From Chloroflexota bacterium (GTDB lineage: Bacteria; Chloroflexota; Limnocylindria; Limnocylindrales; CSP1-4): a DNA stretch of 64,000 nucleotides. Under the pieces are notes generated by a model. It was not told where the DNA came from, searched no databases, and was given only the letters and a program-made list of their open reading frames with translations. The DNA lies in assembly GCA_021787395.1 (NCBI GenBank), contig JAJYLZ010000009.1, positions 2,639 to 66,638 on the forward strand, given 5' to 3'. Shown in pieces: positions 1,588-56,160 of this stretch; the stretch's first letter is position 1; each line of letters starts with the position of its first letter. A program made the translations under genes and the position numbers.

Positions 1588-1607
1588 GGGGCCTCCCTGT
1601 TGTGCCT

Positions 1608-36452: not shown

Positions 36453-36606
36453 GGGGTTCGGCTGGTCCCGGTCTGCGGGATAGAGATTCGCCGCGAGGAT
36501 GCGGCCGCGACCACCGGCCGCGAGTAGGCTGACCCGCTGCTTCTCCTGACCGCTACTTCTGCAGCCAGGCCTGCCACGACACGGTGATCAGGGATCCCAA
36601 TCCCCA
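36453..36606 (+). pseudogene. Decayed YHS-domain gene
   Basis: VPVCGIEIRREDAAAT..* then in another frame RYFCSQACHDTVIRDP; resembles 62639-62833. Confidence 0.55.
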
Positions 36607-36784
36607 CGGCATCCCGCCGCGGGCCACGCCGACACGGCAGGCCCGGCCACTGGTCGGCACCGGGGGCGCGGAGGCTCAGCCGGACCGCCTGGCCGTGCAC
36701 GTCTCAGCGCCGCTTCACCTCGGGCTAAGCCTCCGGAGCAACGATCCCGGCGACCCAAGGCGGAGCCATGGAGGTGCACTCTAC

Positions 36785-37021
36785 ATGGGGGACCTGCTGC
36801 TGGACCCAGTCTGCGGGATGGAGATCGAGTCCGGCGGGGCGGTCGCGAGTGCCGTGGCCGAGGGGCGGCGCTTCCACTTCTGCTGCCCACGCTGCTACGC
36901 CGCCTTCCTCGACACGCCGCATCGCTACGTCGGCTGGCCGGGTGAGCCGGTGCGGCCGGTCCCCGTGGCGGTCGCCCCGCCCACGAGCTCGCGCCTCGGG
37001 CGCTGTCCGTTCGCTTCCTGA
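36785..37021 (+). CDS. YHS-domain protein
   Basis: DPVCGM...FHFCCPRC..F..P; RBS GGAGG. Confidence 0.8.
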   Translation: MGDLLLDPVCGMEIESGGAVASAVAEGRRFHFCCPRCYAAFLDTPHRYVGWPGEPVRPVPVAVAPPTSSRLGRCPFAS

Positions 37022-38256: not shown

Positions 38257-38769
38257 TCAGCGGCGTTCGGCGGCGCGGCGCGGCGCCGCAGCAGTCCGGA
38301 GGACGGTCAGCGCCGTCACCAGGCTCGCGAGGGCCGCGGCGAGCCAGGTCGCGAGGACCGGTGCGCCGGCGAGGACCGACGCGCCCAGCAGGAGGACGAG
38401 TGCCGAGAGGAGGATCGCCCAGGGCCAGGGACCGCGGCCGCCACCGCCCCTGTGGTGGCCGGAACCCGCGCGGCGGACGATGCGCCCGCGGTAGCGGCCC
38501 ATGCCGCACGTGAACCGGACCTCCCCCGGCCCCGCCGCGGGGAGGTCGACCACGGTGGTCGCGCCCGGCGCCAGGTGCCTGACGAGGCGCGGCTCCGAGA
38601 ACACGACGCGGTCCGAGCACTCGTGGGCGTCCACCCTGTGGAACACGAGCCTGATCGGGGTGTCGGCCGCCACCTCGACCAGGCTGGGGTGGTACCCATT
38701 GGCGACCAGGATCTCGACCGTCTGCGCGTCCTCAACCGACACCTTGCCGCGACCGCCGATCACCGCCAT
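38257..38769 (-). CDS. Cupredoxin-domain (CupA-like) protein with C-terminal TMs
   Basis: GYHP, ECSDRVVF, FTCGMG. Confidence 0.75.
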   Translation of the reverse strand: MAVIGGRGKVSVEDAQTVEILVANGYHPSLVEVAADTPIRLVFHRVDAHECSDRVVFSEPRLVRHLAPGATTVVDLPAAGPGEVRFTCGMGRYRGRIVRRAGSGHHRGGGGRGPWPWAILLSALVLLLGASVLAGAPVLATWLAAALASLVTALTVLRTAAAPRRAAERR

Positions 38770-38963
38770 GCGACGGCTCCGAACCCCGCGAGGAGGATCA
38801 CCGCGAGCAGCACGACCACCAACCAGGTCGCCGGGTGCGTCATGACGCCCGCGGCTGCCCCCGCGCACGACCTGGTCGCCGCGCCGCCCCCCACGACCAG
38901 GTCGAGGAGGACGAGCGCGCCGACGGCGATGAGCAGGTAGCCGAGGATGTCCACGGCCGTCAC
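38760..38963 (-). CDS. Small membrane protein
   Basis: Two hydrophobic helices; first gene of the operon, after a class A array at 38979-39015. Confidence 0.55.
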   Translation of the reverse strand: MTAVDILGYLLIAVGALVLLDLVVGGGAATRSCAGAAAGVMTHPATWLVVVLLAVILLAGFGAVAWR

Positions 38964-39122
38964 GTTCGTCTGGCCAGATGAACGCGGGATGAGGCGCTGG
39001 TAATGCACGGCTGAGAATGCCGGCGTCCCAGCCCAGTTCAAGGCTTGCCTCGGGCCTCGCGGCTGAGAACCCTGCTGGGTGCCGCTGAGTCCGGCGAGAG
39101 CGGATCCGGGGGCCCGTTCGGC

Positions 39123-40364
39123 TCAGGCGCGATCCAGGGCGCTGGCGATGTCCCGGAGCAGGTCGTTGGGCGACTCGACCCCCACCGACAGCCGCACCAG
39201 CGCCGGGTCGATCGCCAGCGACGAGGCGGCCACCGACATGTGGGTCATCGCGGCCGGGAGCTCGACCAGGGACTCGACCCCCCCGAGCGACTCGGCGAGC
39301 GTGAACAGGCGGGTCCCCTCGCAGAAAGCAGTCGCCCGTTCGGGCGCAGACTTGCCCGCACGACCGCCGGAGGCGGGGATGAACGAGATCATCCCCCCGA
39401 AGGCCGGCTCGCCGGTCTCCGCGTGGCGCATCTGGCGCGCCGCGATGGCGGCGCCCGGGTGCGCGTGCCGCCCGTCGCGCAGGCCCGGGTAGCTGACCCA
39501 CGCCACGTCCGCGCGTCGCGCCAACAGCTCCGCCACCAGGTTGGCGTTCGCGGAATGCCGGGCCATCCGGAGCGGCAAGGTGCGGAGGCCGCGCAGGACG
39601 AGGAAGCAGTCAAGCGGCCCAGGCACGGCGCCCATGGCGTTCTGGATGAACCGGAGGCGATCAGCGAGGCCGTCGTCGCTCACCACGACGACCCCCAGGA
39701 CGGTGTCGGAGTGGCCCCCGAGGTACTTCGTGGCCGAGTGGAGGACGATGTCCGCGCCGAGCTCCAGGGGGCGCTGGAGCGCCGGCGATGCGAACGTGTT
39801 GTCGACGACAAGAAGCGGTCGGTCTTCTCGCGAGCCCGAGTCGCGGACGAGCGAGGAAACCGCGGAGATGTCGACCACCTTGAGCAGCGGGTTGGACGGC
39901 GTCTCGACCCACACGAGCCGCGTCCGGCCGTGCCTCGCTCCCAGGACGGCCTCAACGGCGCCGCCCGCCAGGTCGACATATCGCGTCGTCGCGGCACCGC
40001 CGGCCTTGTGCACGCGCTCGAGGTACCGGAACGTGCCGCCGTAGACGTCATCGCCCACGAGGATCTCGCTGCCGGGGCCCGCGAGCTGGGCGATGGCCGC
40101 GGTGGCCGCGGAGCCGGACGCGAACGCGATCCCGTGGCGCCCGCCCTCGAGGTCCGCGACGGCGCGCTCGAGGCGTTCGCGCGTGGGGTTCTGGGACCTC
40201 GCGTACTCGTATCCCCGCCGCGGGCGGCCGACGCCGTCCTGGGCGTAGGTCGAGGTCTGGTAGATCGGCGGGGAGACGGCCCCCGTGACCTCATCCGGCT
40301 CTGCTCCGGCGCGCACGGCGCGCGTTGCGAAGGCATGCCCGTTTCCGCGGCGTTGCGTCTCCAT
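39123..40364 (-). CDS. Cystathionine gamma-synthase/lyase family PLP enzyme
   Basis: PIYQTSTY, YARSQNPT, ETPSNP, VDNTF, SATKYLGGHSD, ESLGGVESL. Confidence 0.92.
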   Translation of the reverse strand: METQRRGNGHAFATRAVRAGAEPDEVTGAVSPPIYQTSTYAQDGVGRPRRGYEYARSQNPTRERLERAVADLEGGRHGIAFASGSAATAAIAQLAGPGSEILVGDDVYGGTFRYLERVHKAGGAATTRYVDLAGGAVEAVLGARHGRTRLVWVETPSNPLLKVVDISAVSSLVRDSGSREDRPLLVVDNTFASPALQRPLELGADIVLHSATKYLGGHSDTVLGVVVVSDDGLADRLRFIQNAMGAVPGPLDCFLVLRGLRTLPLRMARHSANANLVAELLARRADVAWVSYPGLRDGRHAHPGAAIAARQMRHAETGEPAFGGMISFIPASGGRAGKSAPERATAFCEGTRLFTLAESLGGVESLVELPAAMTHMSVAASSLAIDPALVRLSVGVESPNDLLRDIASALDRA

Positions 40365-40539: not shown

Positions 40540-41628
40540 TCAGGGCGCAGGGAGCTCCACAAGGAACGTGGCCCCCATGCCGAGGCCGGCGCTCTCGGCC
40601 CACGCTCGGCCCCCCATCGCGTTGGCCAGGGCGCGGACGATCGCAAGGCCGATGCCAGCGCCACCGGCGGATCGCGTGCGGGCCGGATCGACCCGGTAGA
40701 AGCGCTCGAAGACGGCCTCGAGCTGGTCCGCGGCGAGCCCTTGGCCCTGGTCGGTGACCCGGAGCCTGCCGGCCCCGGAGGCCACCTCCGCCGCGACCTC
40801 GATCGACGAGTTGTCCGGCGCGTACCGGAGCGCGTTCGAGAGGTAGTTCGAGACGATCTGGGCGACGCGGTCGCGGTCGGCCATGACTGGCAGGCGGCCG
40901 GCGGGAGCGGCCAGCCCGATCCCTCGCGCGTCGGCCTGCGGCGCGAACCGGGCAATGACCTCCCGAGCCACCTCGGCCGCGTCGATCTCCTCGGTGCGCA
41001 GCGGCAGCTGGTGCGCCTCGGCCCGCCACAGCTCGGCGAGCTCGTTGACCATCCTCGTCAGCCGCGAGGTCTCGGCGCGGAGCAGGTGCCACGTCTGGGG
41101 GCTCGACTGGATCACGCCGTCCTCGAGTCCCTCGAGGTAGCCGTCCAGCGTCGCCAGCGGCGTGCGCAGCTCGTGCGCCACGTCGCCGACCAGCTGGAGC
41201 CGCCTCCGCTCGGTGGCCTCGAGGGACGCCGCCATGTCGTTGAACGACGCCGCGAGGTCGGCGATCTCCCCGGGCTCGTCGGTCTCCACCCGCTCGGCGT
41301 AGTGGCCGGCGGCGATCCGCCGCGACGCGTCGGCGAGGCGGGTGACGGGCCGAGCGATCCGTGCGGCGACGGCAACGCTGACGACGGCTGCCGTGATCAC
41401 CGCGATGACCGTGGCCGCGAGGAGCGCCCGGCGCATCGCGTCGATGAACGCCATCTGGGTGGCCATTGCCATGGCCTCGCCCATCGGGTCGCCCGGGACG
41501 TGGCCCATCGCCTCCGAGAAGTAGCTGGGGCCCACGAGCAGGACCGCCGCGCCGACGGTGCCCAGCGCCGCGGCCGCGACGGCCACGAACGCCGCCAGCA
41601 GCCGAGCACGCAGCGACCGGGGGATCAC
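40540..41628 (-). CDS. HAMP sensor histidine kinase (CopS/BaeS-like) with Met-rich loop
   Basis: AHELRTP, N..RY, D.G.G, FERFYR, GIGL. Confidence 0.93.
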   Translation of the reverse strand: MIPRSLRARLLAAFVAVAAAALGTVGAAVLLVGPSYFSEAMGHVPGDPMGEAMAMATQMAFIDAMRRALLAATVIAVITAAVVSVAVAARIARPVTRLADASRRIAAGHYAERVETDEPGEIADLAASFNDMAASLEATERRRLQLVGDVAHELRTPLATLDGYLEGLEDGVIQSSPQTWHLLRAETSRLTRMVNELAELWRAEAHQLPLRTEEIDAAEVAREVIARFAPQADARGIGLAAPAGRLPVMADRDRVAQIVSNYLSNALRYAPDNSSIEVAAEVASGAGRLRVTDQGQGLAADQLEAVFERFYRVDPARTRSAGGAGIGLAIVRALANAMGGRAWAESAGLGMGATFLVELPAP

Positions 41629-42389
41629 GGCCGCGCCTCGCGCAGCCGGTAGCCCACGCCCCGGACCGTGTCGATGAAGCGCGGATCCGCGGCATTGTCA
41701 CCCAGCTTGCGTCGGATGTTGCCGATGTGGACGTCGACCAGGTGGTCGTCGGCGAAGTTGACGCCGCCCCACACCTCCCGGAACAAGCGCGCCCTCGACA
41801 GGACGATGCCCGGCTGGCGAGTGAGCGCGGCGAGGACGGCGAACTCGATGGCGGTGAGCTCTACATCCCTTCCGTCAACCCTGACGGACCGGCGGTCCTC
41901 GTCGACGGCAAGGCCGGGCGGCCCGGTCGAACGGAGGTGGGCAGTCGATGAGCGCGGTCGCCGGAGGAGCGCCTTGATCCGCGCGACGAGCTCGCGCGGC
42001 GAGAAGGGCTTCGCCAGGTAGTCGTCCGCGCCCACCGTCAAGCCGGCGACGCGGTCGACCTCCTCGCTGCGGGCGGTCAGCATCAGGACGTAGGCGTCCG
42101 AGAACCCGCGGAGTTGCCGGCAGACCTCGATCCCGTCGAGGCCGGGGAGCATGAGGTCGAGGACCACCACGTCCGGCTCGAAGTCGCGGACAGCCGAGAC
42201 GGCAGCGATGCCGTCAGCGACCACGCGTGCCTCCCAGCCCTCTCGCGAGACGTACCCGGCGACCAGATCCGCGATCGGGGGCTCGTCGTCGACCACCAGG
42301 ATGCGCGGGGCGCGTGCAGGCGGATGCGTGCCGGTGTCGTCCGGCTGGTTGTGGTGGATGGTGGACGCCAGATCTGTGTCCTCGCGCAT
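41625..42389 (-). CDS. OmpR-family response regulator
   Basis: [28 protein letters not shown]. Confidence 0.92.
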   Translation of the reverse strand: MREDTDLASTIHHNQPDDTGTHPPARAPRILVVDDEPPIADLVAGYVSREGWEARVVADGIAAVSAVRDFEPDVVVLDLMLPGLDGIEVCRQLRGFSDAYVLMLTARSEEVDRVAGLTVGADDYLAKPFSPRELVARIKALLRRPRSSTAHLRSTGPPGLAVDEDRRSVRVDGRDVELTAIEFAVLAALTRQPGIVLSRARLFREVWGGVNFADDHLVDVHIGNIRRKLGDNAADPRFIDTVRGVGYRLREARP

Positions 42390-42717
42390 GTCGTCTCTGC
42401 AGCACTTGGCTTCTAGAAGCGCTCGCAACCGTGGCGCCTCGAGGACATTGTCCGCGGTCGCTGCGCTGAACACCACACAGGGGGTGGGCAAGCGCGCGTC
42501 AAGGAACCATCAAGACGCCGATCCCGCGCCGCAGCGCCCGGCGAATGCGATCGTGGGCGGCGACCGCAGACAACGTGCGTGGATCGGGACGACGTCAACT
42601 CGGGCCGGGCAAGCGGAGCCGAAGCGCGCCCGGAGCGTGGCCGGGCAGCTGCTTGATCGTCACGCTCCAGGGCGAGGGCGGTGCGGACAGGCGGTTGGTG
42701 GCACCGCCGTGCTTCGT

Positions 42718-42798
42718 CTACGTCCTGTGCGCCGAGCAGTCGCACGGGCAGCCGCAGTGCCTGCAGCCGCAGCACTGGCCGCAGGGGCAGTCACACAT
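42718..42798 (-). CDS. 26-aa metallothionein-like Cys-rich peptide
   Basis: MCDCPCGQCCGCRHCGCPCDCSAHRT* (10 Cys, 2 His); RBS AGGAAGGAGG; start overlaps the MerR 3' end. Confidence 0.75.
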   Translation of the reverse strand: MCDCPCGQCCGCRHCGCPCDCSAHRT

Positions 42799-43191
42799 CG
42801 CCGACCTCCTTCCTGCCGACTTGAATGAGCGGCCGCGGTTGAGCGCCCGCTGCCAGGGCGGCGTCGAGCCGGGCGAGCTCGGCGTCGAGCCCGGCCAGCT
42901 CGCGGGTGCGCCGGGCGATCTCGTTCCGCCGGGTGGCGATCGCCGCCCGGACGCCCTCGGCGACGCGGTCACACTGGCCGTCGGCGCACAGGCCGGCCAG
43001 CTCCGCCGCCTCGCCGAGCGGCACGTCGAGCCGCCGGAGGCCCACCAGCACGCGCAGCCGCTGGACGTCGTCGGCCCCGTAGTCGCGGTACCCGTTCGTC
43101 GCCCGGGCCGGCCGAGGCAGCCGCGCTCCTCGTAGAAGCGCACCGCCTTGGCCGTCACGCCCAGCTCGCGGGCGAGGTCGCCGATCTGCAT
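42791..43191 (-). CDS. MerR-family regulator (frameshift ~43120)
   Basis: MQIGDLARELGVTAKAVRFYE / PRPARATNGYRDY...CADGQC...coiled coil. Confidence 0.85.
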
Positions 43192-43197
43192 GGCCAG

Positions 43198-43228
43198 ACG
43201 GTAGACCTTCCAGAGGCGGGAATGTCAA
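43198..43228 (-). promoter_or_regulatory. MerR-type promoter with 19-bp spacer and CueR-like dyad
   Basis: TTGACA-19 nt-TACCGT; ACATTCC-N7-GGAAGGT; ATG 6 nt after the -10. Confidence 0.85.
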
Positions 43229-43302
43229 GGAGCCAACCAGGGAACGCAGGCCCGACCCATCCACGCCTTCCCCAGCCACCGCGATCGGCGCCGCCGGGAA
43301 GC

Positions 43303-43345
43303 GTTCTTGAGGAGTTCTTGAGGCACCTTTGTGAGCAGCCTGAGG
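43303..43345 (+). promoter_or_regulatory. 11-bp direct-repeat array (class B)
   Basis: GTTCTTGAGG at 43303 and 43314; weaker units at 43328 and 43339. Confidence 0.65.
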
Positions 43346-43423
43346 AAGGCCCCGCAGTATGTCTCTTGCATCGCCCCGCTGGGGGCAACGACACAACGAC
43401 GGATTTCAGGAAGGGAAAGCAGA

Positions 43424-43687
43424 ATGATGTTCGGGTACGGATCCGGCCTCGGATGGGGCCTCGGCGGCTGGTTGGGGATGCTGGGCATGCTCGCCGTGAT
43501 CGTCGGGATCGTGGTCCTTGTCGTCTGGCTCGTGAGCCGCGCGACACAGAGCGCTCAGCCGCAGGGCCCCGGCGCGCCGGGCCAGCAGCCTGATGCGATG
43601 GAGTTGCTCCGCCTGCGGTTCGCGCGCGGCGAGATCACCGCCGATGAGTACCAGGCAGCCAAGAACGTCCTGGAGGCGGGTAGATGA
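43424..43687 (+). CDS. SHOCT-domain membrane protein
   Basis: MMFGYG..TM..LRLRFARGEITADEY. Confidence 0.85.
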   Translation: MMFGYGSGLGWGLGGWLGMLGMLAVIVGIVVLVVWLVSRATQSAQPQGPGAPGQQPDAMELLRLRFARGEITADEYQAAKNVLEAGR

Positions 43688-44307
43688 GCGGGCGGCTGGG
43701 GATCGCCGGGGCGGGGCTGGTCCTCGCCGGCGCGGTGATGATCGGCGTGGGGGCCGTCGTCGGGGGAGGGTTCGGCGGGTTCGGGCCGGCCGCGATGATG
43801 GGCTACGCCCTGGACGGCTCCGCCGGGGCGAACGGAACGAATGGGACGACGACCACGCCCTATGGTTACGGGATGATGGGCGGGTACGGCGGCTACGGGA
43901 TGATGGGCGGGTACGGCGGCTGGGCCGGCAACGGCGTCGCCGGCGCCTCCGCTCCGGCCCCGGGCGAGGCCGGCTTCGTCGCCGGCACGCAGGCGAGCCC
44001 ACGCGTGGTCCAGGTCATCGCCGGCCCCGGCTACACCTTCACGCCGTCGGTGATCACCGTCCAGAAGGGCGAGACCGTCACCTTCGAGGTGACGACCATG
44101 GGACCGCTCGTCCACGAGTTCATGGTCGGCCCGGCCGACGCGGTCGCCGCCGACCAGGAGGGCACGCCCGAGGTCGCCGACATCGGGATGATGCAGACCA
44201 AGTCGGTGACGTACACGTTCGACGGCTCGGGCCCGTACGCCTTCGCCTGCCACGCCCCCGGCCACTACGAGGCCGGCATGAAGGGGACGATCACCGTCGT
44301 CGGCTGA
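43684..44307 (+). CDS. Plastocyanin/azurin-family cupredoxin with GMMGG repeats
   Basis: HEFM, CHAPGHYEAGM. Confidence 0.88.
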   Translation: MSGRLGIAGAGLVLAGAVMIGVGAVVGGGFGGFGPAAMMGYALDGSAGANGTNGTTTTPYGYGMMGGYGGYGMMGGYGGWAGNGVAGASAPAPGEAGFVAGTQASPRVVQVIAGPGYTFTPSVITVQKGETVTFEVTTMGPLVHEFMVGPADAVAADQEGTPEVADIGMMQTKSVTYTFDGSGPYAFACHAPGHYEAGMKGTITVVG

Positions 44308-44425: not shown

Positions 44426-45664
44426 ATGGTCCGTCGTGAGCTGAGCCGCCTCCGGTGGCGGCTGCTGGCGGCCAATCTCGCCGTGGCGGCCGCCGGCGTG
44501 GTTGCGGCCACGTTCGGCGTGTGGCTGGCGGCGCCCGGCGCCTTCAGCGACGCCATGGTCCGCGCCGGCATGATGGGTGCGGGCCAGGGCGGCATGATGG
44601 GCGGCTCCGGGCCAAGCGGGGTGATGGACCCGCTGCTCAGCGCCGCCTTCGGCGACGCCGTCGGGACCGCGATCTGGCTCGGCCTCGCGGCGGCGGTCGT
44701 CGTTGCCGTCGCGGCGTCAGTGCTCCTCGCGACGCGCCTGTCGCGGCCGATCGACGCGCTCGCGGCCGCCAGCCGCCGCGTGGCCTCCGGCGACTACTCG
44801 CGCCCCGTGGCGCAGGGGGCCGGCGAGCTGGGCGAACTCGCCGCGTCGTTCAACGCCATGGCGTCCCGCCTCGCCGCCGAGGAGCAGCGCCGCCGCGACA
44901 TCATCGGCGACGTCGCGCACGAGCTGCGGACGCCCATCGCCTCGGTCCGCGGATACGCCGAGGGGCTGGAGGCGGGTGTGTTCGCGCCCGGGCCCGACGC
45001 CTGGAGAGTGCTGTGCGAGCAGACCGAGCGCCTCGGGCGGCTGGTGGACGACCTGGCCACGCTGTGGCGGGCCGAATCCAGCGACGTGCGGCTGGAGATC
45101 GGTCCCGTGGACGCGGGGACCGCCGTCGCAGACGCCCGGGAGCGCCACCTCGCGGCCGCCGCTGCCCGCTCCACCACCCTCTCGCTCGACGTCGAGCCAG
45201 TGTGGGTCGCGGCAGACGCGGTGCGGCTGGCCCAAGTTCTCGACAACCTCGTCTCCAACGCCATCCGCTACGGCCACGACGGCGGCGCCGTGACGCTGTG
45301 CCTGCGGGCGGAGGGTCGCGCCGGCGTGATCTCGGTGCGCGACGACGGGCCCGGGCTCGAGCCCGCGGAGGCGGCGCGCGTCTTCGACCGCTTCTACCGC
45401 GTCGACACGTCGCGCTCGCGGGCGGGGGGCGGCAGCGGCCTCGGCCTGGCAATCACCAAGTCGCTCACCGAGGCGATGGGCGGCGCGGTGGCGGCGTCGA
45501 GCCCTGGGGCAGGAATGGGGGCCACCTTCACAGTCCGGCTCCCGCTCGCCCGAGCGGCAGACACCCGTCACCCGCCCAAGGGGCTCAGCCAGAGTGACGG
45601 GTCGGGTGGGAATGGGCGACCGCAGCGTGGCAGCGATCGCCCGACGGCGTCCCCCCACTTGTGA
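44426..45664 (+). CDS. HAMP sensor histidine kinase with Met-rich loop (paralog of 40540)
   Basis: GMMGAGQGGMMGG, AHELRTP, NAIRY, DDGPG, GLGL. Confidence 0.92.
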   Translation: MVRRELSRLRWRLLAANLAVAAAGVVAATFGVWLAAPGAFSDAMVRAGMMGAGQGGMMGGSGPSGVMDPLLSAAFGDAVGTAIWLGLAAAVVVAVAASVLLATRLSRPIDALAAASRRVASGDYSRPVAQGAGELGELAASFNAMASRLAAEEQRRRDIIGDVAHELRTPIASVRGYAEGLEAGVFAPGPDAWRVLCEQTERLGRLVDDLATLWRAESSDVRLEIGPVDAGTAVADARERHLAAAAARSTTLSLDVEPVWVAADAVRLAQVLDNLVSNAIRYGHDGGAVTLCLRAEGRAGVISVRDDGPGLEPAEAARVFDRFYRVDTSRSRAGGGSGLGLAITKSLTEAMGGAVAASSPGAGMGATFTVRLPLARAADTRHPPKGLSQSDGSGGNGRPQRGSDRPTASPHL

Positions 45665-45793
45665 CGGCAGCCATCGCGGCGACCATCAGGCCTGAGCCCA
45701 ACGCCCTGGTGTCGCGCTGTGCCGGCGACCCGCCTCTCACTGGTCTGACACGGCCCCCACCGACGGCCGCAGGCGGGCGATCGCGGCGGACGG

Positions 45794-46642
45794 TCAGACC
45801 GTGAGCAGGATCGCGAACCCCATCACCAACACCACGAGCGCCATCAGCAGCTTGGTCCCGCTGGCGTGCTTGAGGTGCCACCGGTTGAGCGTCCTGATGA
45901 CGCCGGGTCGGCTCGCGAGCACGAGGAGCAGGACCAGCGGCGTGATGTACGCCAGGTTGTAGAGGGCCAGTCCCCCAAGCCCGGCCGCCACGCTGCCGCC
46001 TGCGCCCAGCAGGGCCACGACGCCGAGGTACACGGCGCCGCTGCACGGCACCGTGCACAACCCGATCAGCACCCCGCCGCCGAGCAGGGCGAACGGCGAG
46101 CTGGTACGGGCCCATGCGCGCATCCGCCCGTGCAGGGCACCCGGTGCGGCGAGCTGCAGCGGCGCATCCGGCAGGAGCGCGTCGCGGAGCATCCAGATGC
46201 CGAACGCGATGGCGACCAGGGCCGCCACGCGACTCGGCAGATGGTTGGAGCCGAAGTCGGTGGCCGAGGCGATCGCCGTCAGGAGGCCGAGGCCGAGGAG
46301 GAAGTACGTCGCGAGGACCCCTGCCACGAAGAGCGACCCCAGGCCGAGCACGCGCCGCGAGGCCGCTGCGGCGGCGGGCCCCCCCGTGGCCACCGATTCC
46401 CTCGCCGCCAAGCCGAGGGCGAAGGTGGCGAACAGGATGAGCACGCCGAAGGCGCAGGGGTTGAACCCGTCGAGGAACCCGGCGCCGAGGATGATCGGGA
46501 CGGTGAGCGGCTCGAGCGCCCCATGGGCTCCTGCCGGGGCATGCGGCTGGGCGAAGGCGACGGCAGCGGCGGCCACGCCGAGGACCGCCCCCACCGCAGC
46601 GATCGCGGTGGTGCGCCTCGGCATCGCGAGAGCGCCCGTCAT
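45794..46642 (-). CDS. CcdA/DsbD-like transmembrane protein (paralog of 24648)
   Basis: GFLDGFNPCAF...CTVPCSGAVY. Confidence 0.85.
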   Translation of the reverse strand: MTGALAMPRRTTAIAAVGAVLGVAAAAVAFAQPHAPAGAHGALEPLTVPIILGAGFLDGFNPCAFGVLILFATFALGLAARESVATGGPAAAAASRRVLGLGSLFVAGVLATYFLLGLGLLTAIASATDFGSNHLPSRVAALVAIAFGIWMLRDALLPDAPLQLAAPGALHGRMRAWARTSSPFALLGGGVLIGLCTVPCSGAVYLGVVALLGAGGSVAAGLGGLALYNLAYITPLVLLLVLASRPGVIRTLNRWHLKHASGTKLLMALVVLVMGFAILLTV

Positions 46643-47124
46643 GCGGTCACCGTCAGCGTGCCCTGCATCGTCGGGTTGGCTCGGCCGCCGCAGCAGATGC
46701 CGCAGTACCAGGTGTACGTCCCCGGTGTTGCCGGCGCGGTGAACTCGAAGACCTTGCTGCTCTCCGGTCCCACCTTCCAGTCGATGCCCAGCTGGTCGAT
46801 CGCCATCTCGTGCCAGCCGCCGCCGTCGCTGTGGAACTGGGTGTCCAGGGATGTCAGCTCGATGCTGACGGTCGAGCCCGCCTTGACGCTGAACGAGTCC
46901 GGCGAGAATCCGCCCATGCTTGCCTTGACCTGGATGGCATCCGCGGAGATGGGGCTCGACGGCAGGAGGCGGGCCGCGACCAGACCGAGCGCGGCGAGGG
47001 CGATCGCAGCAGCGAGTATGCCGAAGCCGAGCGACCGCAGCCGCCGCCCCCTCGCAGCCGGGCGGGGCTTGGGCTGCCCGGGCCGGGAGGCGGCGCCGCG
47101 GTTCGATGGCGAGTGCTTGTTCAT
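46639..47124 (-). CDS. Cupredoxin with CxxCCG motif (paralog of 25499)
   Basis: GWHEM, PGTYTWYCGICCGGRANPTMQG. Confidence 0.85.
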   Translation of the reverse strand: MNKHSPSNRGAASRPGQPKPRPAARGRRLRSLGFGILAAAIALAALGLVAARLLPSSPISADAIQVKASMGGFSPDSFSVKAGSTVSIELTSLDTQFHSDGGGWHEMAIDQLGIDWKVGPESSKVFEFTAPATPGTYTWYCGICCGGRANPTMQGTLTVTA

Positions 47125-47504
47125 GGGCGGGCTTCCTCTGGGTGTTCTGTGGGTTGGTGCGGGGACGCGATGGGGTCGAGGGGGGCCCGGCCCGGGCTGC
47201 GCCCGCGGCGGAGGATCGGCCGGAGCAGCAGCCGCACGTCCGGGCGGGCGTCCTCCGACGCAACCGCCTGCCGATCGACCTCCTGCTGGACCAGCCGCAG
47301 GAGGAGGGCGTCGAGTGATCCCTGCGTCGCGAGCAGCTGCTGGACGACGGCGCAGTGCGGCTGGCCGCTCCGAATCATCTCGGCGACGGCGGCGGCCTGA
47401 CCCGCGGCGCGGTTGGCGCGGGCGAGTGCCTCTGCGCGCTCCGTGACGGATGCCGCCGTCTGGGGGCGCCGGCCACGTCCCGACGCCGAGCCGAGACGGC
47501 TCAC
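47121..47504 (-). CDS. CsoR/RcnR-like regulator, degenerate
   Basis: RANRAAGQ..AVAEMI...CAVVQQLLA..GSL; GTG overlaps the upstream TGA; second His/Cys ligands absent. Confidence 0.6.
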   Translation of the reverse strand: MSRLGSASGRGRRPQTAASVTERAEALARANRAAGQAAAVAEMIRSGQPHCAVVQQLLATQGSLDALLLRLVQQEVDRQAVASEDARPDVRLLLRPILRRGRSPGRAPLDPIASPHQPTEHPEEARP

Positions 47505-48649
47505 GGGCGCCACCCGTGGGTCGCACGCATGTCCTGGGCGTCGGAGGCGGCCCACGCCCGCATCTGGGCGGCCGCATCATCGGCGTCGACCGCCCCGTAG
47601 CGGCCGCCGCGCACGAGCAGGACGCCGACCGTCGCCAGATCGCCGGCGATGTCCGCGGCAGGGGCGTCCTCCCGCGCGACGCGGAGCGAGGCGGCGGGCA
47701 CCATCACGTCGCCGCATCGCGCGGCGGGGCGGGCCAGCGCCACGCGGAACTGGCGCGGCCCGACGACGCCGACGAACGCGCCACTGCCATCGAGCACGAG
47801 CGAGACGCAGTCGCGCGTGCCCGGCGCCAGATCCGCGATCCTGTCGTCGGCACGGCATACCGACGTGACGGGATGCGCGAGGTCCGAAGCCGAATGGCTT
47901 CTGAGGAATCGGCTCGTCGTGTCGAGGTCCTTGCGGGACCCCGCCGCGACCCAGACGGCCACGGCCGGAAGGCCGCCGAGAGCGGCGATCACGGGGTTGC
48001 GCAGGAGGACTGCGCCTACCGCGAGCAGCGCAGCGAGCAGGGCAGCGGCCGTCCTGGCCATCCGCGCCGCGTGGGCCACCCGGTGGTCGGGGTCTGCGCA
48101 ACGGAGGTCTGCGACCGCCTGGGCGGCCCCCCAGCCAGGGAGTCCTGGAATCGGGACGACGAGGGCCAGGAGTAGCCCGAGGTTCGCGACCCCGGCGAGC
48201 ATGCCGATGGCGTGCTGGTCGGTTCCGGGGATTGCACCCGCGGTCGCGACCCCTGCCGCAATCGCGAGCGCGCTTGACAGAAGTGCGCCGGCGGAGAACG
48301 CGGCGAGGCGTCTTGCCGGCGAGGCATGCAGCACGGTGGAGCTCGAGCGTCGGCGTGGCGCGGCGGCTCTCCGCCCATCGAGCATGACGAGACGCGCCGC
48401 GCGCGGGAGGAGGACGGCCATGCCGACCAGGTAGGTGCCAGCAGCGGTCGTCAGGGCCACCTGCACCGGCCAAGCGTTGGGGTGCATCGGCATGTAGAGG
48501 GTGGCGACGAGGACAACCGCGATGGCAGCCGGGACGAGCAGCCGGCCGGGCCCTTCCGCGGCCAGGCCTCGAGCTGGCAGGCCAGGGGCGAGTCGCGCCC
48601 TCACCAGCGGGGCCCCGGCGCTGCGCGATCGAGGTGCTCGCCCTTCCAT
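47501..48649 (-). CDS. Degenerate M50-like + CBS-like membrane protein
   Basis: Paralog of 27158-28294 (PGLPGW, FL..H.A.DLA.P, VGPRQ); no HExxH. Confidence 0.55.
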   Translation of the reverse strand: MEGRAPRSRSAGAPLVRARLAPGLPARGLAAEGPGRLLVPAAIAVVLVATLYMPMHPNAWPVQVALTTAAGTYLVGMAVLLPRAARLVMLDGRRAAAPRRRSSSTVLHASPARRLAAFSAGALLSSALAIAAGVATAGAIPGTDQHAIGMLAGVANLGLLLALVVPIPGLPGWGAAQAVADLRCADPDHRVAHAARMARTAAALLAALLAVGAVLLRNPVIAALGGLPAVAVWVAAGSRKDLDTTSRFLRSHSASDLAHPVTSVCRADDRIADLAPGTRDCVSLVLDGSGAFVGVVGPRQFRVALARPAARCGDVMVPAASLRVAREDAPAADIAGDLATVGVLLVRGGRYGAVDADDAAAQMRAWAASDAQDMRATHGWRP

Positions 48650-48858
48650 GCCACGTATGCCGCCGCCATGAGGATGCTCCCGCCGACAAGCGCGATCGGG
48701 ATGTCCTCCCGTGCGGGGGCAGTCTGGCCCGGCGCTGCCTCGTCGCCAGTGGGCGACGCACCCCCCGCCCCAGTCACCTCGAGTGGCGTCAAGGCCTCAC
48801 CGGCTAGAGGGAACGCAAGGGCGATGAACGCAGCCAGGATCAAGAGAGCTCGGCGCAT
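48601..48858 (-). CDS. Small secreted/membrane protein
   Basis: MRRALLILAAFIALAF; RBS GGAGGG; class A array at 48930-48966. Confidence 0.5.
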   Translation of the reverse strand: MRRALLILAAFIALAFPLAGEALTPLEVTGAGGASPTGDEAAPGQTAPAREDIPIALVGGSILMAAAYVAWKGEHLDRAAPGPRW

Positions 48859-49153
48859 CGCGAACCCTCCGTTCTCCTCTCCTACATCGGCGGCCCAAGC
48901 GGGGCCACGCAGACTCCACACCTCGCCGCTGAGTTGGGGATGAGGGCCGTCTTAGCAGGCGCTTAGGAATCGCCTCGGACACCGGGCACCGATCTGGGGA
49001 CGACGTCGGGACCGTGCGGCGGCAGGAAATGCATCGCTCAGGGCGGCCTCATCGTGCGCTCAGGCTGGCGAGCGACGCTGTCCGCCCGGGACGAGCTCGA
49101 GAGGAGTATTCCCGAGCACCGTCCGACCGGTACAGCGAAGTTGGAGTCCCAAT

Positions 49154-49522: not shown

Positions 49523-50935
49523 TCAGCGCGGGCGTGCCGGGATCGAGATCTCGACGCGGGTGCCCGCCCCGGGCAAGGGGGCGAGCGACATCGTGGCGCC
49601 GTGGGCGTCGGCGATCCAGCGCGCGATCGCGAGGCCGAGGCCCGTCCCCGATGGCCGGAACCCCCGGGCGCGGCGCCCTCGGTAGAGGCGCTCGAACACG
49701 CGCTCCACGTCCTCCGCGTCGATCCCGATGCCGGTGTCGTCGACGGTCACCACCGCGCTGGCGCCGAGGGACTTCAGACGCACGGTCACCGTGCCGCCCG
49801 GAGGCGTGTAGCGCGCTGCGTTGTCGAGCACGATGCCGAACAGCTCCCGGAGGCGGTATGCGTCTCCCTCGACGGTCACGGGCTCGACGGCGGCGACGGT
49901 CATGCGCACGTGCGGCGCGGCCTGCCGCCCCCGGCGGACGGACTCGACCAGGAGCGCGTCGAGCTCGACCGGCTCGAACTCCAGGCGCGCCCCGGACTCG
50001 GCGCGGGCCAGCGACAGCAGGTCGCCGACGAGGCGGCCCATCCGCTCGGCCTCGTCGCGGGCGTCGGTGAGGATGGCCTCGCGCTCGGCCGGGGGCAGGT
50101 CGGGGCGTGCGGCGAGGTCCAGGTTCGCCCGGACCGTCGTCAGGGGCGTCCGGAGCTGGTGCGACGCGTCGGCGAGGAACCGCTGGAGCGTCTGGTGGTT
50201 CTGCTCCAGCGCCTCGAGCATCTCGTTGAACGCCACGGCGAGGTCGCCGATCTCGTCGCCCGGCCGGCCGACGTCGACGCGCGCCGCGAAGTCGCCGGAG
50301 AGCGCGATGGCCCGGGCGGTCTCGGTCACCTCGACAACCGGCGCCAGGGCGCGGCGGGCCAGGAGGAAGCCGCCGACCACGGCCGCGCCGGACACGAGGG
50401 CGCCGCCCGCGACGAGCGCGGCCGCCACCGTGCGGAGGAGGTCGTCGAGGGGCAGCGTCGAGTTGGCCCACGCGACGTAGCCGACGACGCCCCACGTCTG
50501 GTTGGTGATCGTGTGGACCGTGTAGCGGCGGGAGTCGCCCGTCGCGGTCACGAACGGCCGTACTAAGTACGCGTGGGCGTCCGCGGCCGCGAAGTCGGCG
50601 GCGTCGATGGGCGGCGGGGCGGCGCCGGCGGGCGCCGAGTCGGCGATGACCGCGTGGCTGGGGTCGTAGACGACCACACGGCCGCCGGTCGACGCCAGCT
50701 GGTCCACCAGGCGTCCGCTCGGACGGAGCCGGCCCGCGGCGTCCACGTCCTGGGCGAACGCGCCCGCAGCATGCTCGGCGTTCGCGAGGAGGGCCGAGTC
50801 GAACGCCCCGACGAGCTGGCCGCGGAGCAGGACGAAGGTACCACCGCCGAACGCCAGCAGCGCCACGGCCAGCAGCCCGTTGTAGATGAGCGCCAGGCGG
50901 ACCCGGAACGAGGGCCGCGGCCGACGCGTTCTCAC
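49523..50935 (-). CDS. HAMP sensor histidine kinase (MprB/CusS-like)
   Basis: [27 protein letters not shown]. Confidence 0.92.
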
Positions 50936-51612
50936 TCCTTGAGCACGTAGCCCGCGCCGCGGACGGTGTGGATCAGCCTCGACTCTCCGGCGGCCTCGAG
51001 CTTCCCGCGCAGGTACCGGACGTAGACCTCGAGGATGTTGGACTCGCCCTCGAAGTCGTAGGCCCACACGTGGTCCATGATCACCTCCCGGGTGAGGACC
51101 TTGCGCGGGTGGCGCATGAACAGCAGCAGCAGGTTGTACTCGGTCGTCGTGAGTTCGATCGGGCGGTCGCCCCGACGGCCCTCCCGGGCGTCCACGTCGA
51201 GCTCGAGGTCGGCGAAGCGGAGCACCTCGCCAGCTGGCGCGGTCCGGCGGCGCAGCAGCGCGTGCACCCGGGCGAGCAGCTCCTCGAAGCTGAACGGCTT
51301 GACCAGGTAGTCGTCCGCGCCGGTCTCCAGCCCCGCGACGCGGTCCGCGACCTCGTCCCGGGCCGTCAGCATCAGGATCGCGACCTCGTCGCCCGCGGCA
51401 CGCAGTCGGCGCGTGACCTCGAGGCCATCGAGACCCGGCATCATGACGTCGAGGACGACGAGCTGGGGCAGGTGCTCTCGCGCCTTCTCGAGGCCCTCCT
51501 CGCCCGACGCGGCCTCGACCACCCGGTACCCCTCGTACGCCAGCCCGCGGCGGACGACGGTGCGGATCTTTGGGTCGTCGTCGACGACGAGGACGCGGAC
51601 GGGGTCAGCCAT
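50932..51612 (-). CDS. OmpR-family response regulator (MprA-like)
   Basis: [38 protein letters not shown]. Confidence 0.93.
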
Positions 51613-51952: not shown

Positions 51953-52699
51953 TCACGCCAGCGGGCCGACTCCGATGTGGCAGGCAGCAAGGAGGGCGAC
52001 ATACGCCGCGATCGGCAGCCACTCGAACGGCAGGGCTCGCCGGCGGTCGCTCCGGCCCGCCGACGCGGCGCCCACCAACCACTCGATACGCCTGACTGGA
52101 TCCGCCGCGAACGACGTACCGCCAGTGTCCAGCCAGTCCGTCTTGAGGAGCGCGCGCGCCACGGTGGCCCGGCTCGACCCGGCATCGATGGCCGCGCGGT
52201 CCGCCTCGATCTCGAGGTCCGAGAGGCGGCGGGCGGCGGCGTCTCGCACTGGACGAAACGGCCGGAGCAGGGTCGCCCACGCCTCGAGCGCCGCCGCATG
52301 CATCGGAGCCCGCGTCTTGCGGTGATGCTCCTCGTGGCGCAGCACCGCGAGAAGCTCGTCGGCCTGGAGGTCCGCGAGCAGTCCGGCGCCAATGTAGACG
52401 TTGGGGCGCAGCCAGCCGAGCACGAAGGCGTGTCGCCCGCCGCCATCGACGAGCAGGAATCGGACCCCCGCGACCTCCATCGTGCTCGCATGGGAGTCGA
52501 GCGCCCTGCGGAGGCGCTCGTCGCGAACGACGATCCGCAGACCAAGCACCGCCCAAGTGGCGACCGCGAGGGCGCCACCCACCTCAGGCGCGCGCAACGG
52601 ATCGCCGGAGGCGTGCGTCAGGGCGTCGGCGCACCACGCGCCGATCGCCACCGCCAGCCCGAACGCGGCCAGGAGCGCGACGGCCAGTCGCCGGTTCAC
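51953..52699 (-). CDS. M56/M48-family (BlaR1-like) membrane metallopeptidase
   Basis: AVLRHEEHH, EIEAD, ARALLK. Confidence 0.8.
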   Translation of the reverse strand: MNRRLAVALLAAFGLAVAIGAWCADALTHASGDPLRAPEVGGALAVATWAVLGLRIVVRDERLRRALDSHASTMEVAGVRFLLVDGGGRHAFVLGWLRPNVYIGAGLLADLQADELLAVLRHEEHHRKTRAPMHAAALEAWATLLRPFRPVRDAAARRLSDLEIEADRAAIDAGSSRATVARALLKTDWLDTGGTSFAADPVRRIEWLVGAASAGRSDRRRALPFEWLPIAAYVALLAACHIGVGPLA

Positions 52700-53109
52700 G
52701 GGGGCCCGCCGCCGGCGAGGCGGACGAGCTCCGCCCGGAGCTCCGGGTCGAGTTCGCCGAGCCTCTCGCCGAACTGGCGGACGGCGGCCGAGCCGTAGCG
52801 GGCGAGGACGGCGTCGACGGCCTGTCCCGCGAGCGCATCGACCGAGGCCGGCTCGTCGCCGGCGGGGCGGTACACGTAGCCGCGCCCGACCTTCGTCCGC
52901 TCCACCAGTCCGCGGTCGTGGAGGCGGACGAGGATGGTCATGACGGTGGTGTACGCCAGCTGGCGCGGCTGCTCGCGGTTGATGTGCGCCACGACGTCGG
53001 CGACGCTCGAAGGCCCGCGGTCCCACAGGACGCGCATGACCGCCGACGCGAGCGGGCCGAGCATCGATGCCACGCCGGGCTCCCCTAGGCGTTGCTCCTC
53101 CGGCTCCAT
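52696..53109 (-). CDS. BlaI/MecI/CopY-family repressor
   Basis: LGPL...VM..LW, LAYTTVMTILVRL..RGLV.R. Confidence 0.92.
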   Translation of the reverse strand: MEPEEQRLGEPGVASMLGPLASAVMRVLWDRGPSSVADVVAHINREQPRQLAYTTVMTILVRLHDRGLVERTKVGRGYVYRPAGDEPASVDALAGQAVDAVLARYGSAAVRQFGERLGELDPELRAELVRLAGGGPP

Positions 53110-54463: not shown

Positions 54464-54955
54464 CTACGTCTCGGCGTCGGCCAGGTCGAGTTCCGCGGCG
54501 GCGACGACCCGCGAGCATGGGCTGCATCGCCCCACGACCGTCAGGTGGGAGAGGTTGACCACGAACCCCCGCGCTGCCGTCAGCGCTTCGGTCAGCGCCG
54601 CGGCTTCGGCTCCGCTGATATCCCAGGTCCCGCCGCACGCCTCGCAGCGCAGGTGGCCGTGCACGGACTCGGGCAGCACGTGGTATTCCTCGACTCCGTC
54701 GTGGCCGTGGGAATGGCGCACCAGCCCGAGCTCCTCGAGGGCGTCGAGGCTCCGGTAGACGGTTGAGGGCGTCGTGTCGGGGTCGACCGCCCGGCAGCGC
54801 TCGACGAGCTCGGAGCCGGTCACGTGGCCCTGCGCGGAGAGGAGCACTTCGACGAGCACCCGCCGCTGCGGCGTCCAGCGCATGCCGCTCGCCCGCAGGC
54901 GCGCCCTCGCCCTCTCGACCGCACTCTCTTCTCGGTGGCTGGCTGGCTGGCTCAT
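54464..54955 (-). CDS. Fur-family regulator (Nur/Zur-like)
   Basis: RWTPQR, STVYRSL, HSHGH, HGHLRCEACG, CSPC. Confidence 0.9.
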   Translation of the reverse strand: MSQPASHREESAVERARARLRASGMRWTPQRRVLVEVLLSAQGHVTGSELVERCRAVDPDTTPSTVYRSLDALEELGLVRHSHGHDGVEEYHVLPESVHGHLRCEACGGTWDISGAEAAALTEALTAARGFVVNLSHLTVVGRCSPCSRVVAAAELDLADAET

Positions 54956-55083
54956 CGCACCCGGCATCCTACGGCTCTCCTAACCGGCAGCTTACCGCGG
55001 CGCAGATGCCACGGAGGACAGATGCAACACGGCGCGTTAGGATGCCCCCTGACCCCACCGACCCTCGTCCCAGGGAGCCGTTC

Positions 55084-56160
55084 ATGCTGTCGCACCTCCG
55101 CCGTCTGCTCGACGCGTCCCCCAGCCTGCGGCGACGGGTCGTCGTGGTGTACGTCTTCCTGCTGTGCTTCAACGTCGCCGCGTGGGGCCTGGCCCTCGCG
55201 GCGTCCGCGGCCTACCCGATCCTGCTGCCGACAGCGTTCCTCGCCTACACGTTCGGCCTACGGCACGCCGTGGACGCGGACCACATCGCGGCGATCGACA
55301 ACTCGACCCGCAAGCTGATGCAGGACGGGCAGCGCCCCGTCGCGGTCGGGACGTTCTTCTCGCTCGGCCACTCGACCGTCGTCGTCGCCCTGTCGGTGCT
55401 CGTCGCCGTCTTCGCCGGCGCGGTGAGCGGGATCCCGGCGGCGCAGCGGATCGGCGGCCTGATCGGGACCGGGGTCTCCGCGACGTTCCTCCTCGTGATC
55501 GGCGTCATCAACCTGGTCGTGCTGCTCGACATCTGGCGGATGTTCCGGGAGGTCCGCGAGGGCGGCGAGTACAGCGAGGAGAGCCTCGAGGACTTCCTCG
55601 ACAGCCGCGGCCTCCTGGCGCGGCTCCTGCGGCCCGCGCTGCGGCTGATCCGGCGGAGCTGGCACATGTACCCGCTCGGCTTCCTGTTCGGCCTCGGGTT
55701 CGACACCGCGTCCGAGGTGGCGCTCCTCGGACTGGCGGCCACCTCCGGGGCCGGCGGCGTCCCGGTCGGCTACATCCTGATCCTGCCCGCGCTCTTCGCG
55801 GCGGGCATGTGCACCGTCGACTCCACCGACGGGATCCTGATGCTCGGTGCCTACGGCTGGGCCTATGTCAAGCCCATCCGCAAGCTGTATTACAACCTCA
55901 ACATCACCTTTGTGTCGGTGGTGATCGCCTTCATCATCGGCGGCATCGAGGTCCTGAGCATCATCGCGAACCAGTTCGGGCTGACCGGCGGGATCTGGGA
56001 CGTCGTCACAGGACTCGACTTCGGGCTGATCGGCCTCGGGATCATCGTGGTGTTCGCGGCGAGCTGGATCCTGTCAACGCTCGTGTACCGCTGGAAGGGC
56101 TACGACGACCTGCTCGCCGCGGCGCATCCGGCCATGGGGACGGGCGGCGACGCCTCCTGA
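55084..56160 (+). CDS. HoxN/HupN/NixA nickel/cobalt transporter (NiCoT)
   Basis: RHAVDADHIAAIDN, FSLGHSTVV, LFGLGFDTASE. Confidence 0.95.
   Translation: MLSHLRRLLDASPSLRRRVVVVYVFLLCFNVAAWGLALAASAAYPILLPTAFLAYTFGLRHAVDADHIAAIDNSTRKLMQDGQRPVAVGTFFSLGHSTVVVALSVLVAVFAGAVSGIPAAQRIGGLIGTGVSATFLLVIGVINLVVLLDIWRMFREVREGGEYSEESLEDFLDSRGLLARLLRPALRLIRRSWHMYPLGFLFGLGFDTASEVALLGLAATSGAGGVPVGYILILPALFAAGMCTVDSTDGILMLGAYGWAYVKPIRKLYYNLNITFVSVVIAFIIGGIEVLSIIANQFGLTGGIWDVVTGLDFGLIGLGIIVVFAASWILSTLVYRWKGYDDLLAAAHPAMGTGGDAS

Follow-up and report, generated by a model that had tools for sequence, protein, structure and literature searches.

A small, unannotated gene was found at the 3' end of a merR gene in a 64,000-nucleotide stretch of DNA from a Chloroflexota bacterium (class Limnocylindria; assembly GCA_021787395.1, contig JAJYLZ010000009.1, positions 2,639 to 66,638). 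This whole stretch is called the window below. The gene encodes a peptide of 26 amino acids, 10 of which are Cys, and we conclude with high confidence that this miniature open reading frame (mini-ORF) is a real, conserved gene that is coupled to merR. The peptide probably serves as a metal-induced thiolate sink, i.e., a metallothionein-like peptide of minimal size that shares a leaderless transcript with its regulator. We put the probability of this reading at about 0.6, as judged from the composition of the peptide and from the slot that it occupies in comparison with sister operons.

The Cys-rich mini-ORF is a conserved gene

The features of the locus are listed in Table 1. The peptide ATG, at 42798-42796, overlaps the final merR codons (GAT GTG TGA), with the merR stop at 42793-42791. 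The peptide of the window contains 10 Cys (38%), two His and no Phe, Trp or Tyr, and the Cys residues are arranged in CxCxC, CC and CxCxCxC motifs. The low mass and high Cys content by which metallothioneins are recognized are therefore both present. When all six frames of the window (73% G+C) were scanned for at least 8 Cys within 21 stop-free residues, this site was the single one detected, and no site was obtained from 20 block-shuffled copies of the window. The original prediction had described a 26-residue peptide with 10 Cys, its own ribosome-binding site and a start overlapping the end of merR, and all of these were verified in the letters of the window.

Homologous loci were collected from a metagenome scan, from 400 genomes of the same class, and from a scan of species-representative genomes (class Limnocylindria, Chloroflexota). 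In the last scan, an alignment of window-like MerRs gave no confirmed relative, while a narrower alignment succeeded. Among the 29 non-own loci from the same-class genomes, 16 had a separate Cys-rich mini-ORF at the merR stop, one had the peptide fused in frame, one had MerA instead, and 11 belonged to another, tail-bearing MerR clade. A mini-ORF was present in 28 of the 34 named loci in metagenome-assembled genomes (MAGs) from the species-representative scan, and in one of the five metagenome loci (L006). After identical DNA was collapsed, the search for short Cys-rich ORFs behind homologous merR genes, which had been proposed as a check, gave 34 non-redundant loci including the window, with peptides of 17-37 amino acids. 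Besides Limnocylindria, the family occurs in other Chloroflexota and, as single cases, in MAGs of Actinomycetota.

The peptides were classified into two types. Type A is represented by the window, L013, L029, L045, L072 and L073, and has 9-10 Cys; nine Cys, two Gly and one His are invariant in the six aligned peptides, and aromatic residues are absent from all of them. Type B comprises 28 loci, with peptides of 17-21 amino acids containing 6-7 Cys and the core C-x2-CCC-x2-HCCG. The start signals were conserved in both types. A Shine-Dalgarno (SD)-like site precedes the peptide start in all 34 loci, and in 32 of them the start lies at -17 to -1 nt relative to the merR stop, counted from its first base, the remaining two being at +2 and +4.

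The ratio of nonsynonymous to synonymous variation (pN/pS) was 0.35 in the peptide frame for both types (21 unique core DNAs for type B, 6 for type A), against 1.2-1.6 in the other frames; for type A, the values in the other two frames were 1.2 and 1.5. Across the 11 columns of type B, the third codon position varied in all 11, and the first and second positions in four each. The Cys codons alternate between TGC and TGT while the Cys positions stay invariant. Within the core the nucleotide identity is 0.81, and immediately past the stop codon it is 0.30. These results clearly indicated that purifying selection acts only in the peptide frame, in both types.

When the type B core was written as a degenerate DNA signature, 401 genomes of the class gave 25 matching places, spread over 21 genomes, and the reversed control gave none. 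Two of the 25 places were unrelated longer ORFs (L079 and L080), and one was in an unpublished genome and was left out of our reading. Five type B mini-ORFs (L077, L078, L081, L082 and L083) are orphans, with no merR detected within about 700 nt (tblastn, E<1e-3). L083 retains an apparent SD-bearing remnant of a merR 3' end.

Model searches gave no relatives. The window peptide matched no Pfam family at E up to 1, and seven relative peptides matched none at E up to 10, Metallothio_Pro being included in both cases; none of the Pfam and NCBIfam models matched any peptide examined, from the window or from its relatives. A type A profile drew a single chain from the PDB, a wheat Ec metallothionein, whose E of 5.7 is not significant, and the ESM Atlas gave no usable match to a 37-amino-acid peptide used as the query.

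Two other classes of small ORF were considered and rejected. For a precursor of a RiPP (a peptide made on the ribosome and modified after translation), no maturase or other conserved neighbour was present in 16 loci (35 flanking ORFs scanned). For a leader or attenuator peptide, the ORF follows a gene rather than preceding one, and the next gene is mostly convergent.

Table 1. Positions of the merR-peptide module and of other genes in the window
Feature	Position	Strand	Remarks
Type A Cys-rich peptide mini-ORF	42718..42798	minus	Translation MCDCPCGQCCGCRHCGCPCDCSAHRT; 26 codons + TAG stop
Shine-Dalgarno site	42805..42814	minus	AGGAAGGAGG; 6 nt ahead of peptide ATG, within merR codons R-K-E-V
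merR body, residues ~25-134 + stop	42791..43120	minus	Frame B (P0002, 109 codons); Pfam MerR_1, MerR-DNA-bind; 82% identity to 134-aa homologues
merR codons 1-24	43120..43191	minus	MQIGDLARELGVTAKAVRFYEERG; frame A (the peptide frame); Pfam MerR, E 3.7e-08
MerR-type promoter	43198..43228	minus	-35 TTGACA (43228-43223), 19-nt spacer, -10 TACCGT (43203-43198)
Operator dyad ACATTCC-N7-GGAAGGT	43225-43219 / 43211-43205	minus	Arms in the 19-nt spacer region
YHS-domain gene	36584-37018		Metal homeostasis
Cupredoxin-like gene	38257-39501		Metal homeostasis
Histidine kinase	40540-41628
OmpR-type response regulator	41625-42491		Downstream of the peptide gene
SHOCT membrane protein with CopI-like cupredoxin	43331-44307		Metal homeostasis; divergent from merR
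Histidine kinase	44426-45664
Histidine kinase	49526-51067
BlaI/CopY-type repressor	52699-53109		Metal homeostasis
NicO transporter	54763-56157		Metal homeostasis

The regulator, its promoter and its exchangeable cargo

The MerR of the window has the central motif LCADGQCD. It was hit by the Pfam models MerR, MerR_1 and MerR-DNA-bind, and the N-terminal helix-turn-helix (HTH) and the coiled-coil dimerisation helix are present. The best NCBIfam matches were CadR/PbrR, MerR, CueR and ZntR, all far below the equivalog cut-offs; for the CueR equivalog TIGR02044, P0002, P0004 and L026 scored 33.3, 62.7 and 72.5 bits, respectively, against a cut-off of 147.4. In a profile search against structures, the best solved relative was CueR (E about 6e-18). 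According to the available text of PMC9909328, in almost every metal-sensing MerR the loop behind the dimerisation helix is bounded by two Cys, and a residue from the other protomer sets the selectivity, namely S77 in CueR and Cys in divalent sensors. In our profile alignment with CueR chains, on the other hand, C112 of CueR falls on an invariant Leu of the clade, and there is no Cys beyond the dimerisation helix. The sole invariant cysteines are C70-x2-G-x-C75, just ahead of the position equivalent to S77, which is occupied by Ser in the MerRs linked to type B and by Ala in the group of the window. The earlier description of an atypical MerR with a central Cys motif and without a C-terminal Cys loop is thus supported.

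The C-terminus of the regulator may also carry a trace of the overlap. All 17 full-length close homologues (133-136 amino acids) end where the window MerR ends, in RKExx(D/N/H/S/R)V. As judged from the protein sequences, their final Val is invariant and the penultimate residue is always encodable as NAT or NGT, which would agree with a start codon, ATG or GTG, that overlaps this end. The G/R-K-E conserved close to the C-terminus appears to be the SD site read as protein, consistent with a constraint on that site. A refutation proposed at the outset, that the Cys tract is simply the in-frame C-terminus of MerR, is ruled out for these 17 homologues, yet it is true of two natural fusions, L026 and P0030. 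When a plasmid collection was searched by tblastn with a 134-amino-acid homologue, only HTH-level matches covering 35-37% of the query were obtained, none of them from this MerR clade.

The -10 element of the window promoter is only 6 nt from the merR ATG (43191), and therefore the mRNA would be leaderless. The promoter of the window (TTGACATTCCCGCCTCTGGAAGGTCTACCGT) and PcopA of E. coli K-12 (TTGACCTTCCCCTTGCTGGAAGGTTTAACCT) are identical at 23 of 31 positions by hand count, with a 19-nt spacer in both, and the operator arms (ACATTCC/GGAAGGT in the window, ACCTTCC/GGAAGGT in PcopA) differ by one mismatch. The predicted TTGACA-19-TACCGT promoter with a dyad close to the CueR box was in this way verified against the fetched E. 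coli sequence. Simple scans of 42300-43500 for sigma-70 promoters and terminators found no site, but the promoter scan admits spacers of 16-18 nt only and is blind to a promoter with a 19-nt spacer. The operator occurs once in the 3.45-Mb, 91.9%-complete genome at up to 2 mismatches. A promoter of the form TTGACN-19 nt-TANNNT-(5 to 8 nt)-ATG was found in 31 of the 34 non-redundant loci; the three that deviate are L073, where the same promoter stands 9 nt from the ATG, and L040 and L068, where the merR 5' end is damaged. The spacer palindrome is ACATTnGAGCnGCTCnAAnGT in most loci, including most of those of type B, and the CueR-like ACATTCC-N7-GGAAGGT in the window and L026.

A maximum-likelihood tree placed all peptide-linked MerRs in one clade (100/100), apart from the tail-bearing MerRs (100/100). 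Within the peptide clade, the gene behind merR encodes peptide A, peptide B, MerA, a MerA-like reductase, or CopZ with a P-type ATPase. In L031, MerA follows merR with an overlapping start and scored 521.8 bits against the TIGR02053 cut-off of 454.45. L069 has a MerA-like reductase with the motif CVNTGCVPSK, which was not scored against TIGR02053, and L071 has a CopZ-like HMA protein followed by a P-type ATPase. The MerRs of L073 (peptide A) and L069 (reductase) are sister rows with 86% identity, their loci are labelled as the same MAG isolate, and their operators share a TACAGCnGCTGTAG core. The type A-linked MerR of L045 nests among the type B-linked MerRs with moderate support. One Chloroflexota MAG isolate, as labelled, has four modules (L045, L054, L069 and L073), i.e., two of type A, one of type B and one with the MerA-like reductase; L054 and L069 are on the same contig.

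From these comparisons, the peptide appears to behave as an exchangeable effector cargo of a soft-metal sensor, which can also stand alone. The presence of MerA or CopZ and an ATPase in the slot of the peptide points to a soft-metal effector, such as a metallothionein-like sink. The module seems to be autonomous, because the flanking genes are variable (the next gene being mostly convergent), the operator occurs once in the genome, and five type B copies have no merR.

Cys tracts are also found on MerR proteins themselves. L026 and P0030 are in-frame fusions of MerR and a type A peptide, and both keep an SD site and an ATG ahead of the Cys tract. The sister MerR clade (L004, L028, L030 and L032-L039) has a central WCHSGHC motif and a C-terminal CC-x(n)-CxCC tail, with no mini-ORF. 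This clade mostly lacks the TTGACA-19-TANNNT promoter, and several of its merR starts appear to be coupled to an upstream gene. More distant MerR-family proteins (P0038, P0050, P0060, P0066 and P0172) carry long Cys-rich, metallothionein-like C-terminal extensions with CxCxC and CGCGCC motifs. The sequences suggest that Cys tracts were fused repeatedly to MerR regulators. In L006, the merR-peptide module has directly upstream of it, in the same orientation, a gene for another MerR (1208-1714, plus strand), which looks canonical and ends with a Cys pair (CDPSGIC) in its C-terminal part.

The merR frameshift and the surroundings of the window copy

In the window itself, merR is broken. Its first 24 codons and its body are in two different frames, A and B, which share one base at 43120, the approximate position of a frameshift. 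The body contains the end of the HTH, the invariant C-x2-G-x-C (LCADGQC), the dimerisation helix and a G-x2-PRPLI motif. From ATG to stop, merR has 398 nt in the window versus 402 in the 134-amino-acid homologues, a deficit of 4 nt, and the 17 full-length homologues (61-82% identical) read YEERGLLPRP uninterrupted across the site. The letters of the window across the frameshift were reproduced exactly in independently assembled contigs from runs X1, X2, X5 and X8 of two studies; this comparison was made at the level of contigs, and one of the runs is not flagged as a possible source of this DNA. Because independent contigs of two studies carry the same letters, the frameshift is a property of the population and not a slip of one assembly. 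The first 24 merR codons share the frame of the peptide, and that frame stays open, so a 157-amino-acid ORF (43191..42718, minus strand) runs from the merR ATG through these codons and 107 out-of-frame codons into the peptide. The original prediction had dismissed this ORF as a frameshift artefact; merR is truly shifted at about 43120, and that explanation is not upheld.

We conclude that merR is a pseudogene in this genome. Regulation by MerR has probably been lost here, because the frameshift is reproduced in the independent contigs, and the unassisted promoter probably gives the peptide gene no more than basal expression. The peptide may in addition be made as the end of the 157-amino-acid out-of-frame product, and the module may be decaying. 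The proposal of a minimal metallothionein activated by an atypical MerR therefore stands in part: the unannotated conserved gene is real and the MerR is atypical, whereas activation by MerR probably does not apply to this genome. In L040 and L068, the merR N-terminus and the promoter look disrupted and the type B mini-ORF is intact, which is a second case of a damaged regulator with a retained peptide. In the metagenome loci L007 and L008, a window-like merR (67% identity) goes out of frame directly after the first Cys of CxxGxC and has no mini-ORF; these are degenerate copies.

The surroundings of the module (Table 1) are related to metal homeostasis. Copper is our best guess for the copy of the window, because the box is CueR-like and the neighbours include YHS-domain, NicO and SHOCT proteins, two cupredoxin-type proteins (one CopI-like) and a BlaI/CopY-type repressor. 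The clade as a whole may answer to mercury or to several thiophilic metals, since MerA-linked paralogues exist. The public runs holding the stretch are labelled as mine drainage and wastewater metagenomes, and seven of the eight may be the source of the DNA itself. A region of about 3.4 kb (45700-49150) has six long ORFs, none with a Pfam match at E up to 1e-5.

Function of the peptide and relation to known systems

Taken as a thiolate sink, the peptide would be one half of a self-contained two-gene metal-response module. A leaderless transcript would start from a MerR-type promoter with the operator dyad in its overlong 19-bp spacer, and would encode both an atypical heavy-metal-type MerR and the 26-residue, 10-Cys peptide. 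Translation of the peptide would be coupled to that of merR by the strong SD site in the merR 3' end and the ATG overlapping the merR stop. In intact relatives, apo-MerR would keep the promoter off until a thiophilic metal, i.e., Cu(I), Ag(I), Hg(II) or Cd(II), binds and MerR brings the -35 and -10 elements into register. We infer that the regulator and the peptide would then rise together, with the peptide thiolates chelating the metal as a sink or buffer, and that the loop would close as the free metal falls.

Several points weigh against this proposal. The related genomes are not independent, so the locus counts, which describe the family and were not used in a statistical test, overstate the support. 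No significant similarity to any metallothionein family was found with Pfam, NCBIfam or the PDB profile search. Produced at 1:1 with a transcription factor, the peptide would buffer metal poorly unless strong induction or separate initiation raised its level. The fusions L026 and P0030, together with the Cys-rich C-terminal tails on related MerRs, fit a part of a sensor rather than a bulk sink. The metal is ambiguous as well, since MerA points to Hg, Cu is suggested by CopZ with the ATPase and by the CueR-like box, and neighbours of the CDF and Nramp kinds in some loci point elsewhere. In this genome the regulation cannot operate as described, because merR is frameshifted. No RNA run is listed among the public runs holding the window stretch, and this has no bearing on expression either way.

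The main alternative, conceivable but unlikely, is that the peptide is a detachable metal-binding domain of a split sensor, which provides the thiolates missing from the end of the dimerisation helix and, once loaded with metal, docks near CxxGxC and switches or tunes MerR, so that its chief role is signalling rather than detoxification. The MerR does lack the two loop cysteines that the available text of PMC9909328 ascribes to nearly all metal-sensing MerRs, with an invariant Leu at C112 of CueR. The in-frame fusions would then show the two parts joined; the sister clade (11 of the 29 non-own loci) has its CC-x(n)-CxCC tails on MerR itself and no peptide, distant MerRs carry long metallothionein-like tails, and the stop/start overlap suggests synthesis at about 1:1. 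However, the two Cys of CxxGxC are enough for linear coordination of Cu(I) or Hg(II), as described for CueR in the material available, and close MerR paralogues with no peptide drive MerA or CopZ and the ATPase, so the clade can sense metal by itself. Furthermore, five type B genes stand without merR, the fused forms retain their own SD site and ATG before the Cys tract, and peptide types A and B swap on related MerRs. A complex prediction for the MerR dimer with the 37-residue type A peptide of L073 and 3 Zn scored 0.01, where the mark is 0.32, the fold of the partner itself being uncertain, and speaks neither for nor against binding.

A variant that combines both roles is doubtful too. The peptide, coupled in translation and at times fused or on its own, would here be the detachable sensing and buffering module of a new class of two-piece MerR sensors, capturing the metal and handing it to MerR, or bridging the metal to it, at a CxxGxC half-site. 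If this were true, the sensitivity of the switch would depend on the same peptide of 20-30 residues as the capacity of the cell to buffer metal, and the system would be a metal analogue of TipAL/TipAS, evolving through repeated fission and fusion.

A thiol role apart from metal, as a sacrificial sink for electrophiles or oxidants or as a ligand of Fe-S or another cofactor under an NmlR/SoxR-like redox MerR, is improbable. The MerR family includes redox and electrophile sensors, weak matches to NmlR and SoxR were obtained (E 1e-7 to 1e-13, far below the cut-offs), and the lone Cys pair could serve as a redox switch. The best profile and structure matches are nevertheless CueR, CadR, MerR and ZntR, the sister operons hold MerA or CopZ and the ATPase and not redox enzymes, and the window has a CueR-like operator in a metal-related neighbourhood. 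Lastly, that the peptide is untranslated, its conservation reflecting an RNA element or the merR 3' end, is highly improbable: gene callers do not call the mini-ORF, and open frames are common in DNA of 73% G+C (the 157-residue junk frame also stays open), but selection is frame-specific, the conserved stretch does not extend past the stop codon, 34 loci share start, SD and stop, Cys positions are invariant over varying TGC/TGT codons, the type B signature occurs at 25 places in 401 genomes versus none for the reversed control, and no equally dense Cys frame appears in shuffles.

The proposed thiolate sink can be compared with several known systems. MymT is under the control of the repressor RicR and is not known to be coupled to a MerR, and SmtA is under that of the ArsR-type repressor SmtB. 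In the accessible part of PMC7558416, MymT of M. tuberculosis is described as a small Cys-rich ORF, originally non-annotated, whose up-regulation serves copper resistance and which has a predicted capacity of up to six Cu(I). The job proposed here is the same, i.e., a cytosolic thiolate sink for a soft metal, but MymT is, at 4.9 kDa, about twice the size of our peptide. SmtA/BmtA are Cys-rich, as is our peptide, and metal-induced and cluster-forming, as our peptide would be; the portions of the literature at hand give them a zinc-finger-like fold of about 55 amino acids with a polynuclear Zn cluster, whereas the present peptides have no match to Metallothio_Pro, with E relaxed to 10 for the relatives. 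Few families of metallothioneins are known from bacteria, and the review text available names SmtA/BmtA, MymT and those of Pseudomonas.

On the regulatory side, CueR is the best solved relative, and PcopA has the 19-bp spacer and a near-identical operator. The present MerRs differ in their scores (33-72 bits against 147.4) and in having CxxGxC instead of C112 and C120, and the MerR of the module would be autoregulated from a leaderless mRNA, with a peptide and not an ATPase as cargo. Metallothionein-like proteins activated by MerR-family members have a precedent in CadR-Zrd of P. aeruginosa, where, in the available text of PMC12301328, the sensor is proposed to activate a small Cys-rich protein likened to metallothioneins. 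As presented there, Zrd differs in being a zinc ribbon with two mononuclear Cys4 sites, with an unrelated sequence pattern and no translational coupling to its regulator.

The fused forms have another counterpart. They would mimic tipA exactly, with their internal SD site and ATG, while most of our loci encode the small product in an overlapping ORF of its own, read in another frame. The tipA gene of Streptomyces is an autoregulated MerR-family gene (tipAL) whose transcript also yields a small ligand-sequestering product, TipAS; what is sequestered there is a thiopeptide antibiotic, and TipAS corresponds to the C-terminal domain of the regulator itself, translated from an internal start in the same frame. 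A 1998 paper is said to describe a Streptomyces regulator with a "metallothionein-like domain", which could bear on these forms. A peptide so small can hold a Cu(I)-thiolate cluster, as fungal copper metallothioneins of about 25 amino acids do; that of Neurospora crassa, with about 7 Cys, is comparable in size and Cys count but is eukaryotic, has another Cys pattern and shows no detectable homology. We know of no bacterial metallothionein as small as these peptides of 17-37 residues. No description of Cys-rich mini-ORFs coupled to merR was found in full-text searches of the literature, a coverage that leaves out subscription journals and supplementary files.

What is new here is the peptide family and its coupling architecture, and not the principle. 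The family is invisible to gene callers, Pfam and NCBIfam, and the 3' ends of merR genes are worth scanning for overlapping mini-ORFs in genome annotation. The promoter, the atypical MerR and the peptide would together make a compact, portable sensor-plus-sink cassette of about 0.5 kb, with the cargo exchanged for MerA or CopZ. Through such a cassette, metal sensing by a MerR without loop cysteines, the minimum size of a metal-thiolate cluster and the coupling of a regulator to its buffer would become testable, and it would offer a natural part for biosensing or metal capture.

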